Shown: positions 8,522 through 41,922 of the stretch, piece after piece | Layout of the letters: each line of letters begins with the position of its first letter | Numbering within the stretch: position 1 is the stretch's first letter | Source: an uncultured bacterium | GTDB taxonomy: Bacteria; Chlamydiota; Chlamydiia; Chlamydiales; JAJFMA01 | Assembly (NCBI GenBank): GCA_964445105.1 | Contig: CAYUJS010000005.1 | Span: 3,791 to 67,790, forward strand | Direction: 5' to 3' | DNA length: 64,000 nucleotides | Position numbers and translations under genes: made by a program | Notes under the pieces: model-generated | The model's input: the letters and a program-made list of their open reading frames with translations, nothing else | What the model was told of the DNA's origin: nothing | Databases searched by the model: none

Positions 8522-9662
8522 TTAAGCAAGGGCACCGAGCTCAGCAAACTCATTTACAAGTGTTTTAAAAGCTTCGCGGACCTCTCGATTGGGAAAATCT
8601 AACTTATAATTATGGCTGACTTCATCATACCCTTGGATCGTAAGGTACCCGGTCTGCCACATAAGAGGGATGAGTTGGAGACTCGCCAGATTGCCGACGT
8701 CCAAAGGGCTGCTTTGTTCCTCAGCCACCATATTCCAACCGGCTGTTTGCGCACTTGTTGAACGAGAAGCGTGGTCGTACCTGTTTCAAACCAATAACTC
8801 CGCACCCTGCCAGTGTCCAGAAAATTTAGGATAGAGTGGGGGTTGTAGACCGGCTCTGCGCCCCAGGCGAACCGATAACCATTGTACCACTCTTTTATTT
8901 CGGCTAAAACAGCTTCCTCATTTGCTTTGGTCGCGCCCGTAGAACGGCGCTTTTCGGCTACTCGCTTTATTTGATCACCCAGAAAGCTTTGCAGATCCGA
9001 CGCTGCATAGCCCGCTAAAGTGGCGTAATCTGTGTTGGTCGTGATGTCCTTTAGGTTGTTAAATCCAGAAAAGAGAGAAGTCTTACAAAATTTGGTGACT
9101 CCCGTGGGAAATACAAAGCGCAACTGTTTATCGAGCGACTTGAGCGTGCTGTAAAAATCTTTTAGCAAAAGTTGGTTACCCTTGGCTATATCGATCTGTT
9201 CAAGGTGGTCTAGTAAGGGCTTATCTTACTCATCGATTAGGACGACGACTGGGCCCAACTCGGCGAGCTCCTTTACGAGATTGACTAATCCGTGTTGTAG
9301 GTCTGAGCAGTCGATGGACTTGCTGTACAAAGCGGCGGTGTCTTCCAAAACTCTCTGCAACCCAGAGGCCAGTTTTTCGGGATTTTTCGTTGAGATTTGC
9401 GCAAAATCGAAATAACGGGGTGTTTTTTCGAATCGTAGTCCGTGTTGTAGATATGGCAATTTTTAAATAACTCCTTATCGCCCTTAAAAATCGCTTCGAG
9501 CGTGCTCAGAAGGAGTGATTTACCGAACCTGCGTGGGCGCGACAGAAAATAGTACTGTCCATCTGTGATTAATCTGTGGATTATATCCGTTTTGTCTACA
9601 TACAAAAAATTCCGATTAATAATGTTTTCGATAGATTGCATGCCGATCGGTAACTTTTTCAT
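8522..9662 (-). pseudogene. AAA-ATPase-like / PD-(D/E)XK (DUF1703-type) family gene, multiply frameshifted and 3'-truncated
   Basis: The N-terminus MKKLPIGMQSIENIINRNFLYVDKTDIIHRLI..YYFLSRPRRFGKSLLLSTLEAIFKG is the hallmark of this family. The homology then hops between four ORF-track fragments in different frames. These are 9285..9662, then 9226..9459 (..VVVLIDE), then 8599..9168 (..RFVFPTGVTKFCKTSLFSGFNNLKDIT..WYNGYRF..VYNPHSILNF), then 8522..8731 (..QTGYLTI..YKLDFPNREV). The expected C-terminal nuclease domain is missing. Confidence 0.75.
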
Positions 9663-29467: not shown

Positions 29468-30292
29468 GTGGCAGATATCGAACGGATGGCGCAGTATTCG
29501 CTCAAAAATGCAGATACTATTAGGCGGATTTGCGCCCCGCTAGAGCAGTTTCGCGTGAAGCACTTCTGGTGCAGTAGAACCTCTGAAGATGGTCAGTTCC
29601 TGTGCATCGGAAGTAATCCCGCCTTACATGAAGACTATTACTTATCGAAAAGCTACTTGGATAATCCCTCTTTTCGAAGCCCAAAACTGGTCGTACCCGG
29701 GTTTTACTTTCACCAGAACTACGAGGACGACAAGTATAAGAAAACCATAGAAAATTACAGAGAAAAGTTTGATACTGAATTTTGCGCTATCCACCTCCTG
29801 AAGCAAGGCAAGGAGCTAATACGTTGTGGATACGCCTCGACCCCCGCCAATGCGTCGAAGTTCAACACCCTCTTTTCAAACAACATAAAATTGTTTGAAA
29901 AATTCAATAGATACTTCTTGAGGGAAGCTAGTAATTTGTTCGCGAAGGGCATTAATTACTCCGTTAATTTAGTGAAAGAAATCGGGGAGCGATTTGATCA
30001 AAAAAGCAGCCTTTATTTTTTAAGCAAAGAGGAGAAATGCTCTTTTTTAGGTCGCTTAGAGCCTGAGCTTGTCAACATCAAAAAGCTGAGCCCCCAAGAA
30101 ATGTGCTGTATGAGGTTTTTGACCGAGGGGTTATCCGCGCCTCTTATTGCTGCCAGGATGGGTCTTTCTGCGCGCACGGTGGAACATTACCTCGACTCTG
30201 CTAAAGATAAGCTATTCTGTGAGTCAAAACGCGAGCTATTCAGGTATGCCACGCTGCTGCAGACGACCTGCGGCTTTTTTGGGGATGAGTAG
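29468..30292 (+). CDS. LuxR-family transcriptional regulator (GerE-type C-terminal HTH; unassigned ~200-aa N-terminal domain)
   Basis: The C-terminus reads LSPQEMCCMRFLTEGLSAPLIAARMGLSARTVEHYLDSAKDKL, a LuxR/GerE HTH. It has a GTG start. Confidence 0.75.
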   Translation: MADIERMAQYSLKNADTIRRICAPLEQFRVKHFWCSRTSEDGQFLCIGSNPALHEDYYLSKSYLDNPSFRSPKLVVPGFYFHQNYEDDKYKKTIENYREKFDTEFCAIHLLKQGKELIRCGYASTPANASKFNTLFSNNIKLFEKFNRYFLREASNLFAKGINYSVNLVKEIGERFDQKSSLYFLSKEEKCSFLGRLEPELVNIKKLSPQEMCCMRFLTEGLSAPLIAARMGLSARTVEHYLDSAKDKLFCESKRELFRYATLLQTTCGFFGDE

Positions 30293-30454: not shown

Positions 30455-30976
30455 ATGTCCAGAATGGTAAATGTCTCCAATGTGCTCTCTGCATCGCGTG
30501 GCCTGTTGGCGTTGATTTTTCTGGTGCCTTCTCCAGCAACCCGCGGCCTGGTGATCGCATTGGCTATGCTTACGGACGGCTTGGATGGGTTTTTAGCGCG
30601 GCGTTGGCATCAAACTAGTCAGTTCGGCGCGATGCTTGACCCTTTGATGGACAAGTTTTTTGTGATCTTTGTGCTGGGCGTGCTGCACTTTGAGGGCGCG
30701 GTCCAGTTTCCGCAAATTGCGGCTCTTCTTTGTCGCGATGTGGCCATAGTGATCTTTGGCATTCATCTTTACAAGGCGGGCGAGTGGTCGCGCTACTCTT
30801 TCAGAGCAATTTGGAGCGGTAAGGTGACGACTACGTTGCAGTTTTTTGTTTTATTAGCTCTAAGTTTTGGTTACCCGGTCCCTAGCTATGTTTATCCAGC
30901 TTTTGTGGTGCTCGGCATATTTGCGTTGATTGAGCTTTCGCTCATGGCGCGTCAACAGGGAGATCCGATCGGATGA
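30455..30976 (+). CDS. CDP-alcohol phosphatidyltransferase (PgsA-like)
   Basis: The signature D-G-x2-A-R-x8-G-x3-D-x3-D is present as DGLDGFLARRWHQTSQFGAMLDPLMDK. It is about 173 aa long and polytopic. The start was taken at ATG 30455. Confidence 0.8.
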   Translation: MSRMVNVSNVLSASRGLLALIFLVPSPATRGLVIALAMLTDGLDGFLARRWHQTSQFGAMLDPLMDKFFVIFVLGVLHFEGAVQFPQIAALLCRDVAIVIFGIHLYKAGEWSRYSFRAIWSGKVTTTLQFFVLLALSFGYPVPSYVYPAFVVLGIFALIELSLMARQQGDPIG

Positions 30977-32100
30977 AAGTCGCTTGGAGCGTGTTTGTAT
31001 TAGATGGCGGTGTCTCTGGAATTTCTACCTATGTATTGTCCTTAATCCGTGCCTTGAGCGGGGTAGACCAGACGAACGAGTACGAGATATTGCTCCCCTG
31101 GCCGGCGCAGTCTATGCTGCCTCCTCTAAGCGGTAAGTTCAAAATTAGGCCGTCGCGGCCTTTGGTAAACAGCCCCTTGATAAATATTTTATGGCATAAC
31201 TCGCTTTTACCAGCTCTCGCCCGTAGCCGCGGCTACGATCTCGTTCATTTGCCCAGTATTCGCCGCATCCCCCTGATCAAGAGCTGTTGTCTGGTGGCGA
31301 CAGTACACGACATGGCCCCTTGCGCTATGCCCGAGAAATATGACGCCTTGCGCTGGTTCTACCACCAACATGTGCTGGGGCGCTTGATCCATAGATGTGA
31401 CCGGATTATTGCCGTGAGTCATCATACTAAAGCGGATATCGTGAAGTACACTGGGTATCCAGAAAATAAGATAGATGTCATTTATTCAGGCATCGACCAG
31501 AGCGTCTTTCAGCCTCATGCAGGAGACGCGGTTCTTCAGCAGCGTTACGGCTTATATAAACCGTTTTTGGTCTATGTCTCGAGAATCGAATATCCTGCTA
31601 AAAATCATTTAAATCTCATCAGAGCCTTCGAGCTATTGAAGCAAAAGTATGACTTGCCGCATGAACTGGTTTTTGCTGGCCCTGAGTGGTCCGGAAGCGA
31701 GGTAGTGACTAATTATATCCTGCATAGTCGCTACAGAGACCAGATCCGTTCATTGGGGGTTATTCCGACTGAGGATGTGGTGCGGCTTTATTCCGCTTGT
31801 GACTTGATGGTATTCCCCTCTTACTTCGAAGGATTTGGTTTTCCCCTGTTGGAGGCAATGGCTTGCGGTGCACTGGTGGCCTGTTCTAACGCCACCGCGC
31901 TCAAAGAGCTTGCAGAGGGCTATGCAGAGCTTTTTAATCCGCGCGATCCAGATGATATAGCCCAAGCAATGCTCAATGTACTGAATAGTCCTGAAAAAGA
32001 GCTGTTGCGGGCCCGTGGGCGCGTGTACGCCTCCAAGTTTCGTTGGGAGGCCGCCGCACAGCAAGTATTAGAGACCTATCAAAAAGCACTCGATTCATGA
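30973..32100 (+). CDS. GT4-family (GT-B, retaining) glycosyltransferase
   Basis: It has the E-x7-E motif region FPSYFEGFGFPLLEAMACG and is 375 aa long. It has ATGA overlaps on both sides (30973..30976 and 32097..32100). Confidence 0.8.
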   Translation: MKVAWSVFVLDGGVSGISTYVLSLIRALSGVDQTNEYEILLPWPAQSMLPPLSGKFKIRPSRPLVNSPLINILWHNSLLPALARSRGYDLVHLPSIRRIPLIKSCCLVATVHDMAPCAMPEKYDALRWFYHQHVLGRLIHRCDRIIAVSHHTKADIVKYTGYPENKIDVIYSGIDQSVFQPHAGDAVLQQRYGLYKPFLVYVSRIEYPAKNHLNLIRAFELLKQKYDLPHELVFAGPEWSGSEVVTNYILHSRYRDQIRSLGVIPTEDVVRLYSACDLMVFPSYFEGFGFPLLEAMACGALVACSNATALKELAEGYAELFNPRDPDDIAQAMLNVLNSPEKELLRARGRVYASKFRWEAAAQQVLETYQKALDS

Positions 32101-32933
32101 CCGTTGCGATTATTATGCGCTCTATGAACGAGCAGCCGTACGTGGAACAAGTCTTTGAGGCACTGCGTAAGCAGAGCTTCCGCGATTTTACCTTATATAA
32201 CGTGGACTCAGGATCAACGGATGGCACCTGGGAGTGTGTTTGCAGAGAAAATTCTAGGGCAGACAAAAGACGCCGTATCCGCCTGGAGCAGTATGTGCCG
32301 GGTAAGGTGCTGAATGACACGATTGCGCTGACGACTGAGCCTATCATTGCTCTTTTGAACGCCGACGCTATTCCCCTCTCTACCGCATGGCTGGAGGAAC
32401 TTGTACAACCCCTGTTGCGCAATGAAGCCGATGCTACGTTGAGTAGGCAGATCGCTAGGAAAGATGCCCATTTTATCGTAAAAAACGATTATCTGCGTGC
32501 CTACGACCCGGCCCGGTATACAACGCAGTCCCTCGATCTATTTTCGGCAGTATCCTGTGCCTTTAAACGGTCCATATGGGAGCAATGCTCTTTCCCTTCA
32601 GAAGGGTATGCGGAAGATTGGGCCTGGTTTCAGGCATGTCGGCAGCTAGGTATGCGGTTTCGTCTTGCGGCGGGTTCTGTGGTCGAGCACTCCCACAACT
32701 ATTCACTGAATGCTTTGTATCGCAAGCGCTTCCGGCAAGCGAAGACGTTTGTTAGGGTGGACGGCGTGCCTCCCTCTGCCTGTAAGCAAGCGCTAGCCGC
32801 CCTAAAAGAGGTAGCGCGAGATCTCTACAGCGCCGCCAAGTGCCTACAATTCCATACTATCCCCTACAATATCGCCTATAGGGGCGTCATCCACGCAGCT
32901 ACCTATTGGGGCCGCAAAAAAGCGCAGGGTTAG
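32097..32933 (+). CDS. GT2-like glycosyltransferase
   Basis: The start at ATG 32097 overlaps the GT4 stop. It has MTVAIIMRSMNEQPYVEQVFEALRKQSF..YNVDSGSTDGT and LLNADAIP (DxD-like). Confidence 0.7.
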   Translation: MTVAIIMRSMNEQPYVEQVFEALRKQSFRDFTLYNVDSGSTDGTWECVCRENSRADKRRRIRLEQYVPGKVLNDTIALTTEPIIALLNADAIPLSTAWLEELVQPLLRNEADATLSRQIARKDAHFIVKNDYLRAYDPARYTTQSLDLFSAVSCAFKRSIWEQCSFPSEGYAEDWAWFQACRQLGMRFRLAAGSVVEHSHNYSLNALYRKRFRQAKTFVRVDGVPPSACKQALAALKEVARDLYSAAKCLQFHTIPYNIAYRGVIHAATYWGRKKAQG

Positions 32934-33194
32934 CCCGTAGGCCCTGCAAAATTAAAAAGTGTTGCAGTCTAGGTGTCCAAGATGCGTTTCCGATCCATTC
33001 TTCAAGAGGGTTGCGTGGTTAGAGATGGCAATAATTCATTATCCCTAGGAATGTGGGTTTAAAACGCTCTTTAGCGTCAGCGGATGTTTGGTTGTGTATT
33101 TCTAGTTTCACTTGCTGGGATTTTTGGTTAATAAATTCGCCCTTACCTTTTTCGCGGACGCTGCGGGTTTCCTCTAAGAGTTTCAAGCGGCTAG

Positions 33195-33431
33195 TTTGCG
33201 GGCGCCACAAATTTCGTCGGCCGATTGGATCTAATTTGCTTCAAGTTGTACGCTAATGTAGATCAAGGACGGTCTAGTAAACATTTTATTTATTTGGAGC
33301 AGTTCGGCCCAACTCATGAAGAGCTGTCAATAGCAAAAGCGTGGTGTATGACGCAAGATATGTCTACAGAGTTTGCCGATTCGCTGGCGCAAGCACTAAG
33401 AGCACTGGGAGAAAAATTTGGGGGTAGCTAG
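33195..33431 (+). pseudogene. Startless gene fragment; possibly the remnant of a nucleotidyltransferase C-terminus or the frameshifted 5' part of the next gene
   Basis: The open frame begins right after a stop at 33192..33194 and has only a TTG start. Its product ..DLICFKLYANVDQGRSSKHFIYLEQF.. resembles the L.A.KL.A..DR...KD..DL helix of AbiEii/DUF1814-like NTases (weak, from memory). It ends inside an AAAAATTTGGGGG run where the next ORF starts. Confidence 0.25.
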
Positions 33432-34275
33432 CAAGCAGCTCGATAGGATCTTAGCTCGCCTCGCTTGGAGCCTTTGGACAGAGCTTGGGATAGCAGGCCT
33501 TGAACGGGGTCACGAGTCGTTTGCCGTCGCGCCCGAAAAGTTAATTCTACTGACTTCGGTTTTGTCGGAGTTCGATCCGCGTCTGCGCGATGAGGCACTT
33601 GATTGGTGTAGCCGGTATCATCATTTTATTTGCCCTATCCGTCTTCAAATTCTTGCGAAGAGATACAAAGTCTTTGTGCCAAGGCCCTTCTCAATTTTTT
33701 CAGCGACGGTCAATGCTGCTGTAACCATGCGGACCAAATGGATTGTCTTACAAGCAGAGTCGCCTCTGAAATTTCGGCCCAGCGGCAAATCAGTTCTTCG
33801 AGATTTTGAGGCTCCCTCGATGATCTACTTTCGTTTGCAGGCTTTTTTAGGGGTGGGCGCACGCGCTGATGTCCTGGCTTTTCTACTGCATCAAGAGAAC
33901 GGCGGCTTTACCGCTTCTGACTTAATAGAAATAGGCTACTCCAAGCGGCGTCTTGCGCAAATTTTAGACGATCTCGCGGCCGCTGGAGTGCTCACCAAAA
34001 CAATGGTTCGCAACCATTGGCGTTATGTTTTTGCAAGGATTGACCCATTCATTCACCTACTAGGGGGCCTGCCGCAGAACATGGTATATTGGGATCGCGT
34101 GTTGGCGGTTTTTTTGCCTATCCGTGCTTGCCTCCACGAGACTGAAAATGCCCCATTGGGTGTGCGAGCCGTCGATATGCGAAACCTGCTAAATACGCTC
34201 AAAAACCAACTCCTACAGCTTGGGCTAAATCCACCAGCCCTGCAAAAGATATTGAGGCTTATTGGGAGAGCTTAG
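33418..34275 (+). CDS. Hypothetical protein with a central winged-helix DNA-binding domain
   Basis: Residues ~148-205 (nt ~33859..34032) read ADVLAFLLHQENGGFTASDLIEIGYSKRRLAQILDDLAAAGVLTKTMVRNHWRYVF, an ArsR/MarR-like wHTH. Only a TTG start is available, so the 5' end is uncertain. Confidence 0.45.
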   Translation: MGVASKQLDRILARLAWSLWTELGIAGLERGHESFAVAPEKLILLTSVLSEFDPRLRDEALDWCSRYHHFICPIRLQILAKRYKVFVPRPFSIFSATVNAAVTMRTKWIVLQAESPLKFRPSGKSVLRDFEAPSMIYFRLQAFLGVGARADVLAFLLHQENGGFTASDLIEIGYSKRRLAQILDDLAAAGVLTKTMVRNHWRYVFARIDPFIHLLGGLPQNMVYWDRVLAVFLPIRACLHETENAPLGVRAVDMRNLLNTLKNQLLQLGLNPPALQKILRLIGRA

Positions 34276-34454
34276 TCGCGTGGATCTTAGATTTTTCTGC
34301 TTTTTATCGCGTCCAGAAGCGATAGGGTGCGCTAAACTCAATGGATATTCTTGCGTTTTTCTAACTGCTGGGCGTAAAAACAAAAGTTGAATGCCTAGCC
34401 TAGGCGCAATGAAACTGTGTCGGTCGAAAAATTTCAAACCGTGGTTAGTGAGTG

Positions 34455-35582
34455 ATGTCCAAGTATTCTCTGCATGGGTCTTTGGCATTCGACGAGCGGG
34501 TTGAAGCTGACATGAAGCGGATCGTGGATGCCATTACAAGCGACCCGCAGGGAGATCAGGTTAATTCTATCGTTCTTCTTGGAGGATACGGGCGCGGGGA
34601 GGGCACGCCTTTTAAGGTCAAGGGGACAGAAGTGCCCTTCAATGACTATGACCTTGTGGTGGTGGTCAATCTTAACAGAAACAGGCGGTTTTCTAAGAAT
34701 TTTTCCCAGCGTATGCAACTGCTCAAACAGAGCCTAAAAAAGCAGTTAGGCATTACTGTGGACCTCTACGTTCACTGCCTCTCATCACTAAAGCGAGCCG
34801 AATGTTCTCTGCTCAACTACGAAATGCAAAATGGTCATCGCGTGCTGTGGGGAAATCCCAAAGTTCTCGAGATTATGCCCAAAGTTTCGCTAGAGGCGGT
34901 ATCTCTGAGCGAAGGCAGCCGGTTGCTGATGAATCGAGGCAAGCTGTTGCTGGATATACGAGGGCGATTGCGCGACCCTAAACCTTTGACTGAACAAGAA
35001 ACAGTCTGTTTTCGTAAATTCCTTTGGAAAAATCACTTGGCCTTTGGCGATTGCCTTCTTCTTTTGAAAAAAGAGTACGATGTGCTCTATCGATTAAAAG
35101 CGGGACGCATTCAGAAATATGAAGAGTCGCAAGAAATCCCCGAGGCTCGCTGGATGATCTCGTTATATCAGCGTGCGGTTGCCTTTAAGCAGCGGGGAGA
35201 GATCGAATTGTTAAGCGGGACGGATTTAGTGGAAGAGTGGTATCGCACTAAGAGCTATTGGTTAGAATTTTTTTTGTGGTTTGAAGGAGCTCGCTTGGGA
35301 GTTGAGTTAGCGTCTTGCCAGGATTACTGCAACGCGATTGCTCTCAGAGAACCGAAGAGTTTCGCTTCAGTACTGCGTAACTTTAGCTTGCTAGGCGGTC
35401 GCATGGTTTATCCGTCGGTAGCTTGGGCTTGTGTGCCTCTACGTAAACGCTTGTGTGCAGCTCTCTATCTTCTTTTACAAGAAAAAGGCGGGGATTTTTT
35501 GTTGGCACAGCTTTTAGGGGGTGGAGGGACGCTCGGGCAGCAGGTTGAGCGATTTTATGCTATGCGCTTGAGGTGTTCGTGA
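34455..35582 (+). CDS. Pol-beta-fold nucleotidyltransferase, GlnD/GlnE-like GGYGRGE variant, with a helical C-terminal domain
   Basis: It has LLGGYGRGEG-x13-NDYDLVVVV (nt 34581..34652) and a later VDLYV (third acidic residue). About 280 aa of helical region follows. I recognised no specific family. Confidence 0.65.
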   Translation: MSKYSLHGSLAFDERVEADMKRIVDAITSDPQGDQVNSIVLLGGYGRGEGTPFKVKGTEVPFNDYDLVVVVNLNRNRRFSKNFSQRMQLLKQSLKKQLGITVDLYVHCLSSLKRAECSLLNYEMQNGHRVLWGNPKVLEIMPKVSLEAVSLSEGSRLLMNRGKLLLDIRGRLRDPKPLTEQETVCFRKFLWKNHLAFGDCLLLLKKEYDVLYRLKAGRIQKYEESQEIPEARWMISLYQRAVAFKQRGEIELLSGTDLVEEWYRTKSYWLEFFLWFEGARLGVELASCQDYCNAIALREPKSFASVLRNFSLLGGRMVYPSVAWACVPLRKRLCAALYLLLQEKGGDFLLAQLLGGGGTLGQQVERFYAMRLRCS

Positions 35583-36712
35583 ATCTTTTCTTTTTTATCG
35601 ATGCACTGGGCTGGGAGGTGCTGCAGAGGCACAGCGATTTTTTAGCCGATTTGGCGCCGCATCGCAAGCCGCTCCGCACGATTTTTGGCTATAGTAGCGC
35701 TTGTGATCCGGCGATTATTTCGGGCCTGCTTCCCAATGAAAATCAGCACTGGTCAAGCTATTACTACTCCCCAGAGACCTCGCCATTTAAAAATCTCTGG
35801 TGGTTGCGGCTGCTGCCCGCATTTCTAACCAATCGGCACCGCGTCCGCAGTCGTCTGAGCAGGTTGGTGCGTAGGCAGTTGGGCTACACCGGCTATTTTG
35901 AGCTTTATTTTATCCCTTTCGAAAAACTGCAGTATTTTGATTACGTCGAAAAAAAACGCATTTATGAGCCAGGTGGGCTGGTTCAAGGAAAATCCATTTT
36001 TGATCTAGCGGCCGAGCAAAGCATTCCCTACCATGTCAGCGGCCCACTTCTTTCGGATCAGGAAAAGCTCAGGCGGTTAACTTATGATTTAAAAAATCGA
36101 CAACTGGCGTTTACCTATGTCACCTTAGGAAAACTAGACGGTGTGATGCACACCCACGGTAATGCTGGCAATCTGATCGACGAGCAAATCGCCTGGTACG
36201 ATCAGCAAATTCGCGCGGTCTTTAAGTGCGCGCAGAAGCGTTACTCTGAGGTTGCTCTTCATGTTTTTTCTGATCACGGTATGCATAACGTTAGCCAGAC
36301 CCTAGACCTACAGAGAGAAATAAAAAAACTAGGTCTCAAATATGGCGTAGACTATGTAGCGATGTACGACGCTACGATGGCTCGCTTTTGGTTTTTAACG
36401 GATCATGGTCGAAACGATATCGTGGGATTGTTGCGCAGTCTTAAGGCAGGATCTATCTTATCCGATGAACAGCTTAAAAAATGGGGAGTATTTTTTCCAG
36501 ATCGTCGATTCGGCGAAATCATCTTTCAAATGCACTCTGGCGGGCTTATTACGCCTAGTTTTGTGAACGACAAATGGCTTCCCGGGATGCATGGCTATCC
36601 ACCAGAAGATGCTGATTCTCACGCTTCTTTTGCCTCGAGTGAACCAATTCCCGAGGGAATTGAGGGAATTGAGGATATTTTTAAAATGCTAAAGTGCGGG
36701 CTTACGCACTGA
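35573..36712 (+). CDS. Alkaline-phosphatase-superfamily protein (nucleotide pyrophosphatase/phosphodiesterase-like)
   Basis: Motifs are FFIDALGWEV, FGYSSACDPAIISGLLPNENQHW (nucleophile region), HVFSDHGMHNV and PGMHGYPPEDADSHASF. The GTG start at 35573, or the GTG at 35579 preceded by GAGG, overlaps the NTase stop (GTGA, 35579..35582). Confidence 0.7.
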   Translation: MFVNLFFFIDALGWEVLQRHSDFLADLAPHRKPLRTIFGYSSACDPAIISGLLPNENQHWSSYYYSPETSPFKNLWWLRLLPAFLTNRHRVRSRLSRLVRRQLGYTGYFELYFIPFEKLQYFDYVEKKRIYEPGGLVQGKSIFDLAAEQSIPYHVSGPLLSDQEKLRRLTYDLKNRQLAFTYVTLGKLDGVMHTHGNAGNLIDEQIAWYDQQIRAVFKCAQKRYSEVALHVFSDHGMHNVSQTLDLQREIKKLGLKYGVDYVAMYDATMARFWFLTDHGRNDIVGLLRSLKAGSILSDEQLKKWGVFFPDRRFGEIIFQMHSGGLITPSFVNDKWLPGMHGYPPEDADSHASFASSEPIPEGIEGIEDIFKMLKCGLTH

Positions 36713-36727: not shown

Positions 36728-37498
36728 TTAGGCTTCCCTGTCTGGAAAGCTAAAAAGGTCTTTGACGGCCTGAAGGGTTACGTCGCGCCCAATGGCGGCG
36801 ATGGCGTCTGTTAGGGGGATGTTTTTAGGGCAGACGCGTACGCAGTTTTGTGCGTTGCCGCAGTCGTGGACGCCACCCTCTTGCATGAGGGGATGAAGAC
36901 GCTCTGCAGCCTGCATGCGGCCGGTAGGGTGTGCATTAAACAAGCGCGCTTGAGCTATGATCTGCGGGCCGACGAATTTGCTGCGTGCATTCACCTGAGG
37001 GCACGCTTCCGCGCAGCACCCGCAGGTCATGCAGGTGCTGAGTATGTAGCGCACTTCTTGCGTTTGCTGGCTCATTTTAGGGCCGGGTCCGCGGTCGTAG
37101 GCCCCATCGACTTCAATCCACGCATGCACTTTCTTCAGATTCTCAAACATGTTACTGCGGTCGATGATGAGGTCACGCACGAGGGGGAATTTAGTCAGAG
37201 GGGCGATTGTGATGACATCGCTTGCCGTAGCGAGCAAAATCTGTTCAATGAGGGCTGTACAGGCTTGGCGCGGTTTGCCGTTGATGAGCATGGAGCAAGA
37301 GCCGCACACCTCTTCTAAACAGCCTTGCTCCCAGACGATGGGTTCTACCTTCTCGCCTTTATTGGTGAAGGGATTTTTCTGGATTTCCATCAGAGAGGAG
37401 ATAACGTTGGCGAAGGGGACGAGGTCGAAATCAAACTCTTGCCAATATTGGTGGCCTGGTGCTCCACGATAAATGCGCAGGGTATAGCTTTGCGCCAT
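36728..37498 (-). CDS. sdhB: Succinate dehydrogenase iron-sulfur subunit
   Basis: It has three Cys clusters: CGSCSMLINGKPRQAC, CMTCGCCAEACP and CGNAQNCVRVCP. Confidence 0.9.
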   Translation of the reverse strand: MAQSYTLRIYRGAPGHQYWQEFDFDLVPFANVISSLMEIQKNPFTNKGEKVEPIVWEQGCLEEVCGSCSMLINGKPRQACTALIEQILLATASDVITIAPLTKFPLVRDLIIDRSNMFENLKKVHAWIEVDGAYDRGPGPKMSQQTQEVRYILSTCMTCGCCAEACPQVNARSKFVGPQIIAQARLFNAHPTGRMQAAERLHPLMQEGGVHDCGNAQNCVRVCPKNIPLTDAIAAIGRDVTLQAVKDLFSFPDREA

Positions 37499-37506
37499 AG
37501 GCTCCT

Positions 37507-39396
37507 TCAGAAGGGCGGTTTAATGGTGGTGGGTACATTTTTGAGCGCGGGCTTCAGTTTTTTCGCTTCTAGATAGCTGCGTGGGGTAGGGTCTAGATAG
37601 GCTGTATCTACCGGTTTGTAAGTGAGCTCGGGCTCATCTTTGCTATAGCTAGCAATGGTTGTTTTTAGCCAGTTTTTATCATCGCGGTTGGGAAAATCAC
37701 GCTTAAAATGTGCCCCTCGAGATTCATCGCGCGCTAAAGCGCATTTGGTGATGACGATGGCCAGTTCAAGCATGTAGCGGAACTGATTAGCGAAGATGTA
37801 CGTTTGATTGGCAAAACGCGTGCGGTCGGCCAGGGAAATATGTTGATAGCGCTCGCGGTACCCTTTTAAAGCATCAAGAGTGTTTTTGAGGTCGTGATTA
37901 TTGCGTGCGACGGTGACATGTTTGACCATTAGTTTGGACATTTCGCCATACAGCGCGAAGACGTTTTCAGGGCCCTCGCGAGCCATCAGGTTATCGTGAA
38001 AGTCGGTTTCGATGGCGAGTTCGTGTTCAAAGATGGAAGCGGAGGTCTCTTCGTGGGTGTGGATAAGCGCTTGAAGGTAGCGTTCTATCTCTACGGCGGC
38101 AGTGAGACCGCCAAATATGCATGAGAGCAGAGAGTTAGCGCCAAGGCGGTTGGCCCCGTGAAATTCGTAATCCGATTCACCGGCGTTGAAACAACCCGGC
38201 AGGTTGGTCATTTGACGATAGCGATTAGAGCGATCAGGTGCGTCTACAGCTGGCCAGTCTACCCAGCTGCCGCCCATCGAATAGTGGACCGCCGGGAAGA
38301 TTTTCATCGGTAGTTTGCGAGGGTCTTCATTGGTAAATTTTTCGTAGATGTCTAGCACTGCTTCTACTTTTTTTTGCGCGGTGGCAGACAGGTGGGAGAC
38401 GTCCAGGTAGACCTGTTGAGAGCCATCGACGCCCAGGCCCAGTTCGCAGACGCGCAGAATCTCGCGCGCTCCCACGTCGCGTCCCACTAGGTTGCCATAG
38501 CCTGGATAGAGTTCTTCGAGGAAATACCAAGGCTTACCGGTTACGCCACAAGTGATGGTTTGCCCGTCGGTTGTGGTTAACGTTTTGCTGGAGTCTCCTG
38601 GTACCCAGATGCGCCCTCCTTCACCCCGCAGTGATTCGGACATAAGGCGTAGTTTATCAGCTCCTGGAATAGCAGTGGGGTGGATTTGGATAAATTCGGC
38701 ATTGGCATAATGCATACCCTGTGTATAAAGGCGCCCATTTGCTGAACCGGTACAAAATTTTGAATTGGTAGAAAGTTTGTAGATCATGCCAGGGCCGCCG
38801 GTAGCTATCAGTACGGCGTCGCCTTTCAGGATTTCAAGCTTAAGGTTGAAGAGGTTCATCGCTACGATGCCTTTGGTGTCGCCATGGCTATCGCGGATGA
38901 GGCGCATGAACTCCCAGTACTCATATTTTTGGACAAGCCCTTTAGCTTCGAAACGGCGTACTTGTTCATCAAGCGCATAGAGAAGTTGTTGGCCGGTAGA
39001 GGCCCCACAGAAGGCTGTGCGGTGGTAGAGCGTGCCGCCAAAGCGTCGAAAGTCTAAATTTCCCTCAGGGGTGCGGTTAAAGGGACAGCCGAAGCGATCT
39101 AGCATATTGATGATGGCGGGGCCTGCAAGGCACATTTCTAGCACGGGTGGCTGGTTGGCGAGGAAGTCGCCGCCTTTTAAAGTGTCGTAGGCGTGGATGT
39201 AGGGGGAATCATCCTCGCCCATCAGGTTCATGGCAGCGTTAATACCCCCTTGGGCACATACAGAGTGCGAGCGCTTCACCGCGCTGAGGCAGACTAATTT
39301 GACGTGGCAGCCTTTTTCGGCCAGCTTCATGGTGGCAGACAGGCCCGCTAAGCCTCCTCCGACGACGATAACTTGACGGGGTTTGCTGTCGGTCAT
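37507..39396 (-). CDS. sdhA: Succinate dehydrogenase flavoprotein subunit
   Basis: It has VIVVGGGLAGLSA (the FAD fold), RSHSVCAQGGINAA (the covalent-FAD His region) and HYSMGG. It is 629 aa long. Confidence 0.9.
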   Translation of the reverse strand: MTDSKPRQVIVVGGGLAGLSATMKLAEKGCHVKLVCLSAVKRSHSVCAQGGINAAMNLMGEDDSPYIHAYDTLKGGDFLANQPPVLEMCLAGPAIINMLDRFGCPFNRTPEGNLDFRRFGGTLYHRTAFCGASTGQQLLYALDEQVRRFEAKGLVQKYEYWEFMRLIRDSHGDTKGIVAMNLFNLKLEILKGDAVLIATGGPGMIYKLSTNSKFCTGSANGRLYTQGMHYANAEFIQIHPTAIPGADKLRLMSESLRGEGGRIWVPGDSSKTLTTTDGQTITCGVTGKPWYFLEELYPGYGNLVGRDVGAREILRVCELGLGVDGSQQVYLDVSHLSATAQKKVEAVLDIYEKFTNEDPRKLPMKIFPAVHYSMGGSWVDWPAVDAPDRSNRYRQMTNLPGCFNAGESDYEFHGANRLGANSLLSCIFGGLTAAVEIERYLQALIHTHEETSASIFEHELAIETDFHDNLMAREGPENVFALYGEMSKLMVKHVTVARNNHDLKNTLDALKGYRERYQHISLADRTRFANQTYIFANQFRYMLELAIVITKCALARDESRGAHFKRDFPNRDDKNWLKTTIASYSKDEPELTYKPVDTAYLDPTPRSYLEAKKLKPALKNVPTTIKPPF

Positions 39397-39397
39397 C

Positions 39398-40405
39398 TCA
39401 TAGCCTCAGATTTATCCAGTAGGTGCCAATGACAGAAGCTAGTCCCAGGAAAGCAGTTAGGATCATCAAAACAGTTGTGACGATAAGCCACAGCCATTGC
39501 GAACGGGCTGTAAGCGTTACTCCCCATTTGATCATAGCCGTCCAAAGCCCATTAAAGGCGTGAAAACAGGCTGCTAAGACAAAGATGGCATAGAGGGCCA
39601 CTAGCCAAGGTTTTTTGAACACATCGCGGATCATGAGCAGGGTGGCTGTGCCGAAGTCTTTCCCCACGGCAATCACTTCGCCATCTGCGACCGGTTTGCG
39701 GCTTAAGGCTGCGACCCAACGGGCGTGCTGGTAGCTCTCTTGCTGTTCTTGCAGCAGAGCGGCTTTTGATGGGTCGTATGTTTCTTCGGGAGGCCCAAAT
39801 AGTAGCTCCTTAGCAGAAAAATAGGTCTCAGGAACTTCTGTGTAAGCGTTTACAACTTTTGACTGAACTTTTGCGATACGAGAATGGTCATAGATATCGA
39901 CATCGAGTCGGTTGGCGAGGGTATAGAGCCCAGAATCAAAGCTGATGCGAGTCATGTAGTAGTTTTGGCCTCCTATCTCGGCTTCCCAAGGCGCCTCTAA
40001 AAATCGCATGTGCAGCACGTGCAAGAAAATCGCAAAAAGTAATAGCCATGAGGTGAGCCTCATCCAGGTGAATGCTTTGTTGCGCGCATATTTGCCTAAA
40101 GCGGGCTTAGATCCATCGGAAGGCCATGAATTGGCTTCTGAGGTAAGCAAATACCTCACTCCCCAGAATATGTGCGTGGCAAAGGGCACAGCTAAAAAGA
40201 GGGTTTCAATGATGGGTAAGTAGGGGAGATGGTGGATATCTTGTACAGCCGCAATAAAGCCCTCTCCGTCGGCTCCTACAAATAGAGCGGCCTGCGAGTT
40301 TGTTAATAGGTGCAGAATGAGAAAAAGTGCCATCCATATGCCCGTCAGCGAGTGTGTACGCCGCCAGACAAAGGAAGTAGGGAGCGCTTGGGCCTTGGGA
40401 GTCAT
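39398..40405 (-). CDS. sdhC: Succinate dehydrogenase membrane cytochrome b subunit (single large subunit type)
   Basis: The 335-aa ORF lies immediately upstream of sdhA (1-nt gap). It has about 5 hydrophobic helices with conserved-looking His residues (LILHLL, ATHIFWG, FLHVLHM, CFHAFNG). Confidence 0.7.
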   Translation of the reverse strand: MTPKAQALPTSFVWRRTHSLTGIWMALFLILHLLTNSQAALFVGADGEGFIAAVQDIHHLPYLPIIETLFLAVPFATHIFWGVRYLLTSEANSWPSDGSKPALGKYARNKAFTWMRLTSWLLLFAIFLHVLHMRFLEAPWEAEIGGQNYYMTRISFDSGLYTLANRLDVDIYDHSRIAKVQSKVVNAYTEVPETYFSAKELLFGPPEETYDPSKAALLQEQQESYQHARWVAALSRKPVADGEVIAVGKDFGTATLLMIRDVFKKPWLVALYAIFVLAACFHAFNGLWTAMIKWGVTLTARSQWLWLIVTTVLMILTAFLGLASVIGTYWINLRL

Positions 40406-41922
40406 AGAATTTGGAAGGCAGCGTTCAGCGCTTGGAGACTGCCTGAAAGGTCGGGCGCGATGCTGGATAGGTGCGTAGAGGCGTAAGAATCGGCTATATC
40501 AATGCTACATGTAGGCTCTTGAACCTCGAATTCTGGCTCCCAACCACCTCCGAGGGCGCGGTAGACGTCGATGATGGTAAGGAATACATTAGCTTGGGTT
40601 TCGACTAGGTTTAGTTGTGAACTAAAGAGGTTGCGTTCGGCATCGAGCACGGTGAGGTAGTCGGTTTGTCCGTTGTCGTACAGTAGTTTTGCTAGGCTTA
40701 GGTAGTTCTCCAAGGCCCTCACCTGATCGCTTTGTGCTTTTAGTAGAGACGTGGATAGTTGATGCGCGATTAGCGCATTATTGACCTCTTTGAAGGCTGT
40801 TTGGATGGTTTTTTGATAGGTGTAGATGAGTTCTTGCGTTACCCAATAGGCGCTGCGCGTTTGAAAATAAATTTGACCGCCTTGAAAGAGGGGGCCCAAA
40901 AGTGAGGAGGCTATATTCCAGTTGCGTGCAGCTGGTGTGAAGGTATTATCGAGGCCACTTCCCGAAAATCCCAGTATACTAGAGAGATTGAAAGAAGGGA
41001 AAAAAGCAGCCCTTGCGATCCCTAGCCTGGCATTTGCGGCGTAGAGGTTTTGTTCTGCTTGGAGAATATCTGGGCGTTGACAAAGAATTTCCGATGGCAG
41101 GTCGCAAGGTATTTCGGGTGCGCGCAAGCGGTCAATGGTTTTTCCACGGCAGATCTTTTCGGGATTGCGGCCAATCAGCACTGAAAGTTCGTTTTCTTTT
41201 TGTGGAATCAATACTTGCAGCTGTATTTTTTGTATACGCGCTGTTTCGAGGTCAGCCTCTGCTTGATTGACCGGCAATTCGGAGGTAAGGCCCTCTTTAA
41301 ATCGCAAAGCGGCCAGCTCTAGAGAGTAGATGCGCGATTTCAGGGTATCTTCAGCGATCACAAGCTGTTTATCTAGGGTCCGTAGCTCAACGTAGGCTCG
41401 GGCAACGGCACTGATCAGCGTAATGATGACTCCTCGTTGCATCTCTTCGCGGTTTAGCAGCTCATGTAGAGCTGCTTGTGTCGTGTTGCGGATTTGACCC
41501 CATAGGTCGACCTCGTAAGAGATGTTAGCTTGTGGTGCAAAGATGTCCAAGGTGCGCACAGCGCCAGGGCTCAGCGGCGTAGTGATTTGCGAGGACTCTT
41601 GTCTGAGTGCCGTAACGCTATATCCAAGAGAGGGCCAGAAGGGAGCCTGTGCGATACCAAGGCGCGCGTAGTATTCGTTGACAGTGGCAACGGCCAGAGC
41701 TAGGTCCCGGTTATTCGCGAGCGCCTCTTCGATCAGTTCATTGAGAACGTGGTCTTCAAATAGCTCCCACCAAGGCATATTGGCGATGATCTGGGGCTCG
41801 TCGCTTGCTACGCGCCATTCGCAAGGTGTAGGCCAGTCGGGGCGACAATTTTGAGGTGCAAAATTGCACGATGGAGCTAGCCCGACAAGAAGGCAAGTAG
41901 TCGCTATGAGGGCGGTTCGCAT
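40402..41922 (-). CDS. Outer-membrane efflux lipoprotein (NodT/OprM family)
   Basis: It has a lipobox-like N-terminus ([11 protein letters not shown]) and two repeated TolC-type halves. Its position is downstream of the RND pump gene. Confidence 0.8.

Follow-up and report, generated by a model that had tools for sequence, protein, structure and literature searches.

A nucleotidyltransferase and an NPP-type phosphodiesterase end a glycosyltransferase operon that is conserved in Chlamydiae and related phyla and split by a decayed cassette in one genome

In this study, we examined a stretch of 64,000 nucleotides, here called the window, from an uncultured bacterium of the Chlamydiales lineage JAJFMA01 (assembly GCA_964445105.1, contig CAYUJS010000005.1, positions 3,791 to 67,790), with focus on 2 adjacent genes for a nucleotidyltransferase (NTase) of the Pol-beta fold and a phosphodiesterase (PDE) of the nucleotide pyrophosphatase/phosphodiesterase (NPP) type. 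We found that the 2 genes, which are translationally coupled, make up the distal half of a conserved operon for cytoplasmic proteins, in which they are preceded by the genes for 2 glycosyltransferases (GTs) of families GT4 and GT2, so that the pair ends a sugar-chain-building operon conserved over Chlamydiae and related phyla. The segment that separates the GT2 gene from the NTase gene in the window is a decayed, AbiE-like mobile cassette of 2 genes that was inserted into the operon. An initial annotation of the DNA had instead proposed an orphan module of 3 genes, in which a winged helix-turn-helix (wHTH) protein, the NTase and the PDE formed an AbiE-like toxin-antitoxin or defence system, and had mentioned as the alternative that the genes decorate the glycan or lipid that the upstream operon produces. 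It is the alternative that is favoured by the evidence presented here.

Results

The NTase and PDE Genes Belong to a Conserved Operon

The 4 genes of the operon were identified at the following positions in the window:

30973 to 32100, plus strand: soluble GT4 glycosyltransferase (Pfam Glycos_transf_1, E = 6e-28; Glyco_transf_4, E = 8.5e-20)
32097 to 32933, plus strand: soluble GT2 glycosyltransferase (Pfam Glycos_transf_2, E = 8e-15)
34455 to 35582, plus strand: Pol-beta-fold NTase of 375 amino acids with a large C-terminal helical domain and the predicted catalytic carboxylates D64, D66, and D103
35579 to 36712, plus strand: predicted cytoplasmic NPP-type (alkaline-phosphatase superfamily) phosphodiesterase or phosphotransferase of 377 amino acids, GTG start

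All 4 genes are located on the same strand and in the order of the operon, with identities of 41% to 60% to their orthologues, and the window departs from the operon order solely by an insertion of 1.5 kb between the GT2 and NTase genes. The GT4 gene, whose product has MshA, BshA, and GlgA as its best relatives of solved structure, overlaps the upstream gene for a CDP-alcohol phosphatidyltransferase by the sequence ATGA (30973 to 30976), and the GT2 gene overlaps the GT4 gene in the same manner (32097 to 32100). The probable start codon of the GT2 gene is the ATG at 32097; the mechanically called open reading frame (ORF) starts with a TTG at 32043, and the orthologues matched from about amino acid 19 to 21 of this ORF. 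The overlap between the NTase and PDE genes was as described in the initial annotation, with the sequence GTGA at 35579 to 35582 combining the TGA stop codon of the NTase gene (35580 to 35582) and the GTG start codon of the PDE gene (35579), and the 2 genes were called identically, as 375 and 377 amino acids, in 2 public assemblies that were made independently for this organism. No transmembrane segments were identified in the GT4, GT2, NTase, and PDE proteins, which argues that the chemistry of the operon is cytoplasmic.

A scan restricted to 1 genome per species yielded a set of 80 loci, which was searched by tblastn with the proteins of the window. The set covers Chlamydiae, Lentisphaerae/Victivallales, Kiritimatiellia (including cultured Pontiella and Pontiellaceae isolates), Lentisphaera marina, and Verrucomicrobia, as well as distant NTase matches in a deltaproteobacterium and in 2 small-celled archaea of the DPANN group. 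A PDE gene was located downstream of the NTase gene on the same strand in 69 of the 72 testable loci, and it abutted the NTase gene directly in 66 of these. Since the arrangement is repeated in 69 of 72 loci, the adjacency is beyond what is expected by chance, and the suggestion that the NTase and the phosphodiesterase are a tightly coupled pair was borne out in 4 phyla, with overlaps between start and stop codons where the genes have been called.

The upstream half of the operon was also recurrent. The gene for the GT2 orthologue ended within 150 nucleotides of the start of the NTase gene in 54 of 75 loci, and was located further upstream, within 10 kb, in another 9 loci. GT4 orthologues, with identities of 41% to 60%, were found upstream of the NTase gene in related loci, contiguously in 29 of 68 and at a longer distance in 17 more. 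The gene calls for the loci L083 and L085 displayed the order GT4-GT2-NTase-PDE with 2-nucleotide gaps or overlaps between the genes. Furthermore, we identified a protein of 676 amino acids (P0409) in which the GT2 and the NTase are fused, and a protein of 580 amino acids (P0168) in which the PDE is fused to a receiver (REC) domain. The identities of the NTase and PDE proteins across the loci tracked the taxonomy of the hosts, and the surroundings were syntenic and of a housekeeping type over 4 phyla.

The Content of the Operon Varies among Lineages

The operon consists of GT4-GT2-NTase-PDE in Chlamydiae, and no REC gene was found in the window or in any of the chlamydial loci. In Kiritimatiellales, the stop codon of the PDE gene is overlapped by a gene for a REC protein of 220 to 235 amino acids with a hydrophobic C-terminus (for example, L085 12254 to 12922 and L034 4228 to 4896). 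The region from 3880 to 9190 in the Pontiellaceae locus L039 contains genes for the GT4 protein, a histidine kinase of 1,396 amino acids with SBP, PAS, and GAF domains, and REC proteins, followed by GT2-NTase-PDE; ORFs of about 1,380 to 1,480 amino acids, seen as ORFs and not scanned for domains, occupy the position of this kinase in other Pontiella-type loci. In total, REC-domain genes were present on the same strand and within operon range in 33 of the 80 loci.

The operon in Lentisphaerae/Victivallales has been extended with a WecG/TagA (GT26)-STAS fusion gene in 7 loci and a polysaccharide pyruvyl transferase gene in 5 loci, plus an extra GT2 gene. Examples of these additions are found in L009 (3844 to 6659), L025 (12318 to 13871), and L011 (12577 to 13746), and it was noted that the GT26-STAS fusion is itself unusual. 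The REC and STAS partners suggest that a step of the operon is regulated.

The distant NTase-PDE pair in the deltaproteobacterial locus L082 (30% and 25% identity, respectively) is encoded amid genes for a Wzx-type flippase, a methyltransferase, a GT2 protein, an epimerase, and a GT4 protein. It was also noted that the NTases of the DPANN archaea (L081 440 to 4380; L076 142 to 2426), with identities of 25% to 28%, are encoded beside LPG_synthase_TM (MprF-type membrane) proteins, and in L081 also beside an APH-family kinase. The archaeal neighbours hint at a lipid head-group context for these remote relatives.

The NTase Is Most Similar in Fold to Aminoglycoside Nucleotidyltransferases

Both motifs assigned to the NTase in the initial annotation, LLGGYGRGEG (amino acids 41 to 50) and NDYDLVVVV (amino acids 63 to 71), were present, although the spacer between them consists of 12 residues and not of 13. 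The residues G43 to G50, N63 to D66, and D103 were invariant in an alignment of 24 NTase homologues, as were many of the arginines and lysines in the helical domain. The invariance of D64, D66, D103, and many of these arginines and lysines argues that the NTase is an active enzyme, and judging from the conserved residues, both the NTase and the PDE look catalytically competent. The long helical domain was confirmed in the AlphaFold2 model (mean predicted local distance difference test score, pLDDT, of 93.6), in which helices follow the NTase core from amino acid 152 to 374.

A Foldseek search of the NTase model against the PDB placed AAD(9), AadA, and ANT(3'')(9), which are adenylyltransferases for spectinomycin/streptomycin, at the top, with an E-value of 3e-4, followed by MNT antitoxins and LinB. 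The TM-scores to AAD(9), AadA, and ANT(3'')(9) were 0.34 to 0.41 when normalized on the query and 0.44 to 0.56 on the target, with sequence identities of 8% to 14%. These best fold matches have in common with the NTase a Pol-beta core followed by a helical substrate-binding domain, and the aminoglycoside nucleotidyltransferases (ANTs) transfer a nucleoside monophosphate (NMP) onto hydroxyl groups of sugars or pseudosugars. However, the NTase of the window is about 110 amino acids longer, shows no match to these enzymes at the sequence level, and is encoded in a conserved biosynthetic operon rather than in a resistance cassette. In terms of predicted structure, the NTase family appears closest to the aminoglycoside O-nucleotidyltransferases, which are enzymes that nucleotidylylate sugar hydroxyls.

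The family is large and has no Pfam or NCBIfam model of its own. We identified 434 homologues after clustering at 90%, and a profile search yielded 2,667 clusters at 50% identity, of which 577 had E-values of 1e-30 or lower. The few labelled homologues found were named either "hypothetical protein" or "nucleotidyltransferase", and a weak or subthreshold match to Pfam NTP_transf_2 was obtained for 18 of 24 family members. When the NTase alignment was used as a profile against the PDB, a single protein was returned, a racemase (E = 0.07), and this match was considered to be spurious.

Like the NTase, LicD and FKRP are enzymes of the NTase fold that are encoded in gene clusters for glycan biosynthesis. 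LicD-type enzymes create sugar-phosphodiester linkages, and members of the family add polyol-phosphates to glycans (PMC11666461). However, none of the 24 NTase family members matched the Pfam domain LicD (PF04991) at an E-value of 0.1 or lower, and no LicD- or FKRP-named entry was present among the 50 Foldseek matches listed for the NTase.

The initial annotation had classified the protein as GlnD/GlnE-type, which holds at the level of the motif, since the GGYGRGE...D.D form of the Pol-beta signature is typical of GlnD. By analogy with GlnD and GlnE, the NTase could add AMP or UMP to a protein, for example a GT or a REC protein, and the NPP-type enzyme could remove the mark. Such a role would be consistent with the GGYGRGE...DYD motif, with the large helical domain that follows the NTase core in GlnD and GlnE as well, and with the regulatory REC or STAS partners in many of the loci. 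Nevertheless, the classification did not extend beyond the motif: no GlnE or GlnD_UR_UTase domain was detected by Pfam at an E-value of 0.1 or lower in the 24 family members, GlnE structures were not present among the 50 fold matches listed, and the nearest solved folds were the aminoglycoside NTases and MNT. Furthermore, a carbohydrate substrate is suggested both by the fusion of GT2 to the NTase and by the context of polysaccharide loci, and to our knowledge NPP-type enzymes do not serve as de-AMPylases. We therefore consider the modification of a protein to be distinctly improbable.

The PDE Is a Cytoplasmic Enzyme of the NPP Type

The motifs FIDALGW, GYSSACDP..SGLLP, FSDHGMH, and GMHGYPPED were all found in the PDE, which matched the Pfam family Phosphodiest (PF01663) with a score of 43.1 bits (E = 5e-11), as compared with a curated cut-off of 23. 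No hydrophobic N-terminus, signal peptide, or transmembrane segment was identified, the maximum Kyte-Doolittle score over 19 residues being 0.95, and the first beta-strand in the AlphaFold2 model (pLDDT 94.0) starts already at residue 2. Both the assignment to the alkaline-phosphatase/NPP superfamily and the lack of a signal peptide are thus in line with the earlier description. The Foldseek search retrieved the Xanthomonas (Xac) NPP, ENPP6, ENPP5, and ENPP4 with an E-value of 1.8e-16 and TM-scores of 0.68 to 0.70, and the profile search ranked ENPP7 first, followed by ENPP6 and ENPP5.

The residues D8, S39, D187, H191, D232, H233, and H338 were invariant in 22 PDE sequences, and S39 aligned with the nucleophilic threonine of ENPP7. 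With equivalences assigned by motif, and not by superposition, the PDE keeps all presumed metal ligands of the two-metal site and a serine as the putative nucleophile. In common with the NPPs (Xanthomonas NPP and ENPP4 to ENPP7; PF01663), the PDE has the fold, all presumed metal ligands, and the motifs DHGMH and GxHGY, but it is predicted to be cytoplasmic, without the secreted or ecto topology that is typical of the characterized NPPs, and the identities are only 12% to 14%. It also has a serine for the threonine at the position of the nucleophile and a cysteine at the position of an asparagine, the latter as in ENPP7, and unlike the NPPs it is always encoded beside an NTase.

The fusion of the PDE to a REC domain (P0168) and the pairing of PDE and REC genes in Kiritimatiellia resemble PorX, a response regulator of the type IX secretion system in which a receiver domain is coupled to a zinc phosphodiesterase of the alkaline-phosphatase superfamily (PMC11320123). 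The differences are that the order of the domains is reversed, that PorX has no NTase or GT partners, and that the window and the chlamydial loci lack a REC domain.

The tight coupling of the NTase and PDE genes might alternatively indicate that the NTase makes, and the NPP-type enzyme degrades, a nucleotide messenger that is tuned by the REC and STAS proteins and controls the neighbouring GTs, in analogy with the GGDEF/EAL proteins and exopolysaccharide synthases. The REC genes in 33 loci, the fusion protein P0168, its likeness to PorX, the sensor kinase inside the L039 cluster and the similarly placed long ORFs in other Pontiella-type loci would all fit such a scheme, as would the ability of NPP enzymes to hydrolyse cyclic dinucleotides, ENPP1-cGAMP structures being among the fold matches of the PDE. 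However, the fold matches of the NTase were to ANT and MNT proteins, and the sole entry containing a CD-NTase among the matches listed was found at rank 27 with a probability of 0.15. There was no match to a PADLOC, CBASS, or SMODS model, and the Pfam scan gave no recognizable receptor domain on the GTs. Moreover, the GT2-NTase fusion suits a hand-over of substrate better than signalling, and REC genes are absent from all of the chlamydial loci. A messenger is an unlikely product of the NTase in our assessment, albeit less so than a modified protein.

A Decayed Two-gene Cassette Separates the GT2 and NTase Genes in the Window

The following features were identified in the segment between the GT2 and NTase genes:

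32934 to 34454, no strand assigned: lineage-specific inserted segment of about 1.5 kb, a decayed DUF6036-wHTH cassette
33165 to 33431, plus strand: remnant of a DUF6036 pseudogene, the C-terminal ~89 codons with an in-frame stop, the N-terminal catalytic half missing
33418 to 34275, plus strand: gene with a putative central wHTH domain, TTG start and frameshifted 3' end; the frame of the family runs to 34325
33014 to 33025 (CGTGGTTAGAGA) and 34440 to 34451 (CGTGGTTAGTGA), plus strand: 12-nucleotide direct repeat, 11 of 12 positions identical, spacing 1426 nucleotides

The upstream ORF without a start codon (33195 to 33431) was present as annotated initially, but the homology reaches further in the 5' direction, to 33165, across an in-frame stop codon. 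In tblastn searches with intact DUF6036 proteins from L087, L089, and L091, amino acids 94 to 182 of 183 were aligned to the window at 33165 to 33428 with 53% identity (E = 8e-24), and the alignment crosses the in-frame stop. The N-terminal half that has been lost corresponds to the NTase core with the motif GGGS...DLDL.

The second gene starts with a TTG codon inside an A5T3G5 run (33412 to 33424) and overlaps the startless ORF that ends at 33431. While the start codon and the homopolymeric run were as first described, the winged helix obtained weak support, with a match to Pfam MarR_2 over amino acids 149 to 199 (E = 0.015) and to the PADLOC candidate PDC-M05A (E = 0.0013). We identified 450 homologues of the putative wHTH protein, which are typically of about 303 amino acids and have the same N-terminus as the ORF in the window; the few named homologues are chlamydial. 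It had been suggested that the fragment and the wHTH gene might be a single frameshifted gene, but this was rejected; the N-terminus of the family is that of the TTG ORF, and the fragment represents a separate, upstream DUF6036 gene, so that the segment contains 2 overlapping cassette genes.

A gene for a DUF6036 protein of 183 to 192 amino acids (Pfam PF19502) preceded the gene for the wHTH homologue, with an overlap of 17 nucleotides, in all 3 of the distinct genomic contexts examined. These were next to clpP-clpX/tig, an HD-domain gene, and a SNF2 helicase/tRNA synthetase gene, respectively. The DUF6036 partners matched AbiEii models weakly (E = 2.6e-4 to 0.04) and the wHTH partners matched the PADLOC candidate PDC-M05A (E = 1.4e-6 to 0.003), whereas no match of the wHTH partners to AbiEi models, including those in Pfam, was obtained.

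No tblastn match to the fragment and the wHTH gene was found in the 80 related loci; only L002, from the same organism, matched. The segment from 32934 to 34454 represents an insertion, because the fragment and the wHTH gene are absent from the 80 loci, the DUF6036-wHTH pair recurs in unrelated contexts, and the fragment matches DUF6036. The 12-nucleotide repeat, CGTGGTTAG(A/T)GA, brackets the cassette, with the second copy ending 3 nucleotides before the start codon of the NTase gene; it may represent microhomology at the insertion junctions or may have arisen by chance, as short two-copy repeats often do. The window contains no tRNA gene that could have served as an integration site.

The cassette resembles AbiE, a type IV toxin-antitoxin and abortive infection system composed of the wHTH antitoxin AbiEi and the NTase toxin AbiEii, in that a small NTase gene overlaps a gene for a putative wHTH protein of about 300 amino acids and in that it is located at varied genomic sites. 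It differs from AbiE in that the NTase gene comes first, encodes DUF6036 rather than DUF1814, and is a truncated pseudogene here. The likeness applies to the inserted cassette only, and the NTase of 375 amino acids and the PDE are unrelated to it.

The 3' end of the wHTH gene differed between the 2 assemblies. A run of 4 adenines at 34244 to 34247 in the window results in a protein of 285 amino acids, whereas the sibling assembly L002 contains 5 adenines (within 1421 to 1431) and encodes a protein of 302 amino acids, with a C-terminus (…DIEAYWESLVAWILDFS…) that agrees with the wHTH family. The 2 assemblies are also separated by a substitution 4 nucleotides from this site. A short C-terminus was also observed in a more distant homologue, P0242 (71% identity), and P0280 is likewise of 285 amino acids, so the short form may be a variant fixed in the lineage and not an error of sequencing. 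A C-terminal helical extension of 100 to 170 amino acids without a Pfam match was noted in 3 longer members of the family (P0320, P0342, and P0346; 410 to 479 amino acids), of which P0342 showed a weak match to the PADLOC "2TM effector" model (E = 0.004).

We also considered that the NTase and PDE genes might have started to decay after the insertion, but pseudogenization was not seen and every catalytic residue has been retained. Of the near-invariant columns, the copies in the window deviate at 5 (NTase) and 10 (PDE), and these numbers fall inside the range seen for other lineages.

That the wHTH protein, the NTase, and the PDE constitute a three-gene toxin-antitoxin or defence module could be argued from the 3 consecutive genes on the same strand in the window and from the weak match of the wHTH protein to PDC-M05A. 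However, the wHTH gene adjoins the NTase gene in none of the 80 related loci, where the GT2 gene directly abuts the NTase gene instead, and neither the wHTH gene nor the debris was found there. The conserved partner of the wHTH gene is the DUF6036 gene, of which only debris remains here, and no PADLOC-DB v2 family was matched by the NTase or by the PDE at an E-value of 0.1 or lower. In addition, the NTase-PDE pair is embedded in polysaccharide-type loci in the neighbourhood comparison, in syntenic, housekeeping-type surroundings over 4 phyla and with identities that track taxonomy. The AbiE-like logic belongs to the DUF6036 remnant and the wHTH gene, and because a decayed cassette has been inserted beside the NTase gene, the appearance of a trio is an accident. 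The probability that the 3 genes form a module is, in our judgement, very close to nil.

Genes That Flank the Operon in the Window

One more gene is coupled to the operon in this genome:

30434 to 30976, plus strand: CDP-alcohol phosphatidyltransferase (PgsA-like membrane protein with hydrophobic segments), at the head of the operon in this genome

The protein matched Pfam CDP-OH_P_transf (E = 5e-22) and, at 76.7 bits, scored below the cut-off of 109 for the NCBIfam model pgsA. Apart from the window, only the chlamydial loci L003 and L004 have an upstream gene for a CDP-alcohol transferase in the same orientation.

A gene for a LuxR/GerE-type regulator of 274 amino acids (29468 to 30292) is located just upstream of the CDP-alcohol transferase-GT4-GT2 genes, with a terminator-like hairpin and T-run (30256 to 30274) at its 3' end. 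This protein may regulate the operon in this genome. On the other side, a succinate dehydrogenase/fumarate reductase operon on the minus strand (36728 to 41922), with genes for the Fe-S subunit, the flavoprotein, and cytochrome b, converges on the stop codon of the PDE gene with a gap of 15 nucleotides, and its far end is overlapped by 4 nucleotides by a gene for an outer-membrane efflux (OEP) protein. The succinate dehydrogenase and OEP genes represent an ordinary housekeeping context.

Discussion

The reading that we prefer, and hold to be reasonably probable, is that the NTase-PDE pair is part of an operon for a glycan or glycoconjugate, which has been split by an insertion in the window. 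This is supported by the synteny with the GT genes, the GT2-NTase fusion, the polysaccharide-locus contexts, the ANT-like fold, and the invariant catalytic residues. Starting from the observed operon membership, insertion, folds, and conserved catalytic residues, we infer a substrate and a chemistry along the following lines. The GT4 and GT2 proteins would build a short glycoside, glycolipid, or glycan, and the NTase would place a nucleotidyl group (NMP, as for the ANTs) or a nucleotide-activated phospho-group on a sugar hydroxyl, which would give a sugar-phosphodiester. The NPP-type enzyme would then attack the sugar-phosphodiester via Ser39 at its two-metal site, with the outcome that the group is removed or trimmed, as in editing or regulation, or that the phospho-group is passed to an acceptor. 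Transferases of the alkaline-phosphatase superfamily such as LtaS, EptA, and BcsG pass phospho-groups to acceptors. In the genome studied here, a cassette with genes for a DUF6036 mini-NTase and a putative wHTH protein of about 303 amino acids has landed between the GT2 and NTase genes and then decayed.

The action of the NTase and the NPP-type enzyme on a sugar-linked phosphodiester is more tentative than the placement of the pair in a glycan operon, and we put it forward as a possibility that is less probable than not. With equal caution, we suggest that the 2 proteins might be a new cytoplasmic two-enzyme device, spread widely through PVC bacteria and further, that writes a nucleotidyl- or nucleotide-activated phosphodiester on a nascent glycan or glycolipid and then resolves it, in many lineages under direct control by two-component (REC) or partner-switching (STAS) proteins.

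Several observations weigh against the association with glycans. The NTase-PDE pair was found with no GT genes within 10 kb in L010, L043, L045, L062, L069, and L080, and therefore seems to be able to work away from the GT genes in some genomes. The GT genes are also missing next to the pair in the closest relative, L093, and this arrangement indicates that the clade has lost the linkage to the GTs on more than one occasion. In L093, the NTase-PDE pair, which is 58% and 75% identical to that of the window, is preceded by a gene for a large, repetitive adhesin-like protein (3 to 1586) and not by a GT2 gene. The core operon in the Planctomycetes-Verrucomicrobia-Chlamydiae (PVC) group contains no gene for a flippase, a polymerase, or a priming transferase, and the product may therefore be a soluble glycoside, a glycolipid, or a polymer. 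The fold match of the NTase to the aminoglycoside NTases is weak (TM-scores of 0.34 to 0.41 on the query, 8% to 14% identity), and no solved NTase was retrieved from the PDB with the profile of the NTase alignment. The association with REC and STAS proteins and the PDE-REC fusion would also fit a role in signalling. Finally, our literature searches found no description of the operon or of an activity for any of its members.

Among the variants of the glycan reading, the synthesis of a compatible solute was not adopted; the matches of GT4 to MshA/BshA and of GT2 to GpgS are weak, and the contexts in Lentisphaerae and in the deltaproteobacterium look like polymer loci. A glycolipid anchored to a phospholipid is a sub-variant suggested by the coupling to the CDP-alcohol transferase gene in some Chlamydiae (the window, L003, and L004), on which the location of the distant archaeal NTase genes beside LPG_synthase_TM genes also has a bearing.

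As a toxin-antitoxin or defence "system", the 3 genes are a false lead produced by an insertion, and the window illustrates that a decayed AbiE-like cassette can give its neighbours a spurious appearance of a regulator with an NTase. The actual unit is the four-gene operon GT4-GT2-NTase-NPP, which is found over Chlamydiae, Lentisphaerae, Kiritimatiellia, and Verrucomicrobia, and the NTase-NPP pair in this PVC-wide GT operon appears to be undescribed. Cultured carriers of the operon include Lentisphaera araneosa, L. marina, and Pontiella strains. The surface chemistry of the phyla that carry the operon is poorly known. If the pair acts on a sugar, glycans or glycolipids would be modified by a new route, in which a sugar-linked phosphodiester is made and processed in the cytoplasm, and a two-enzyme device of this kind would represent a new chemistry by which glycans are decorated or are turned on and off.

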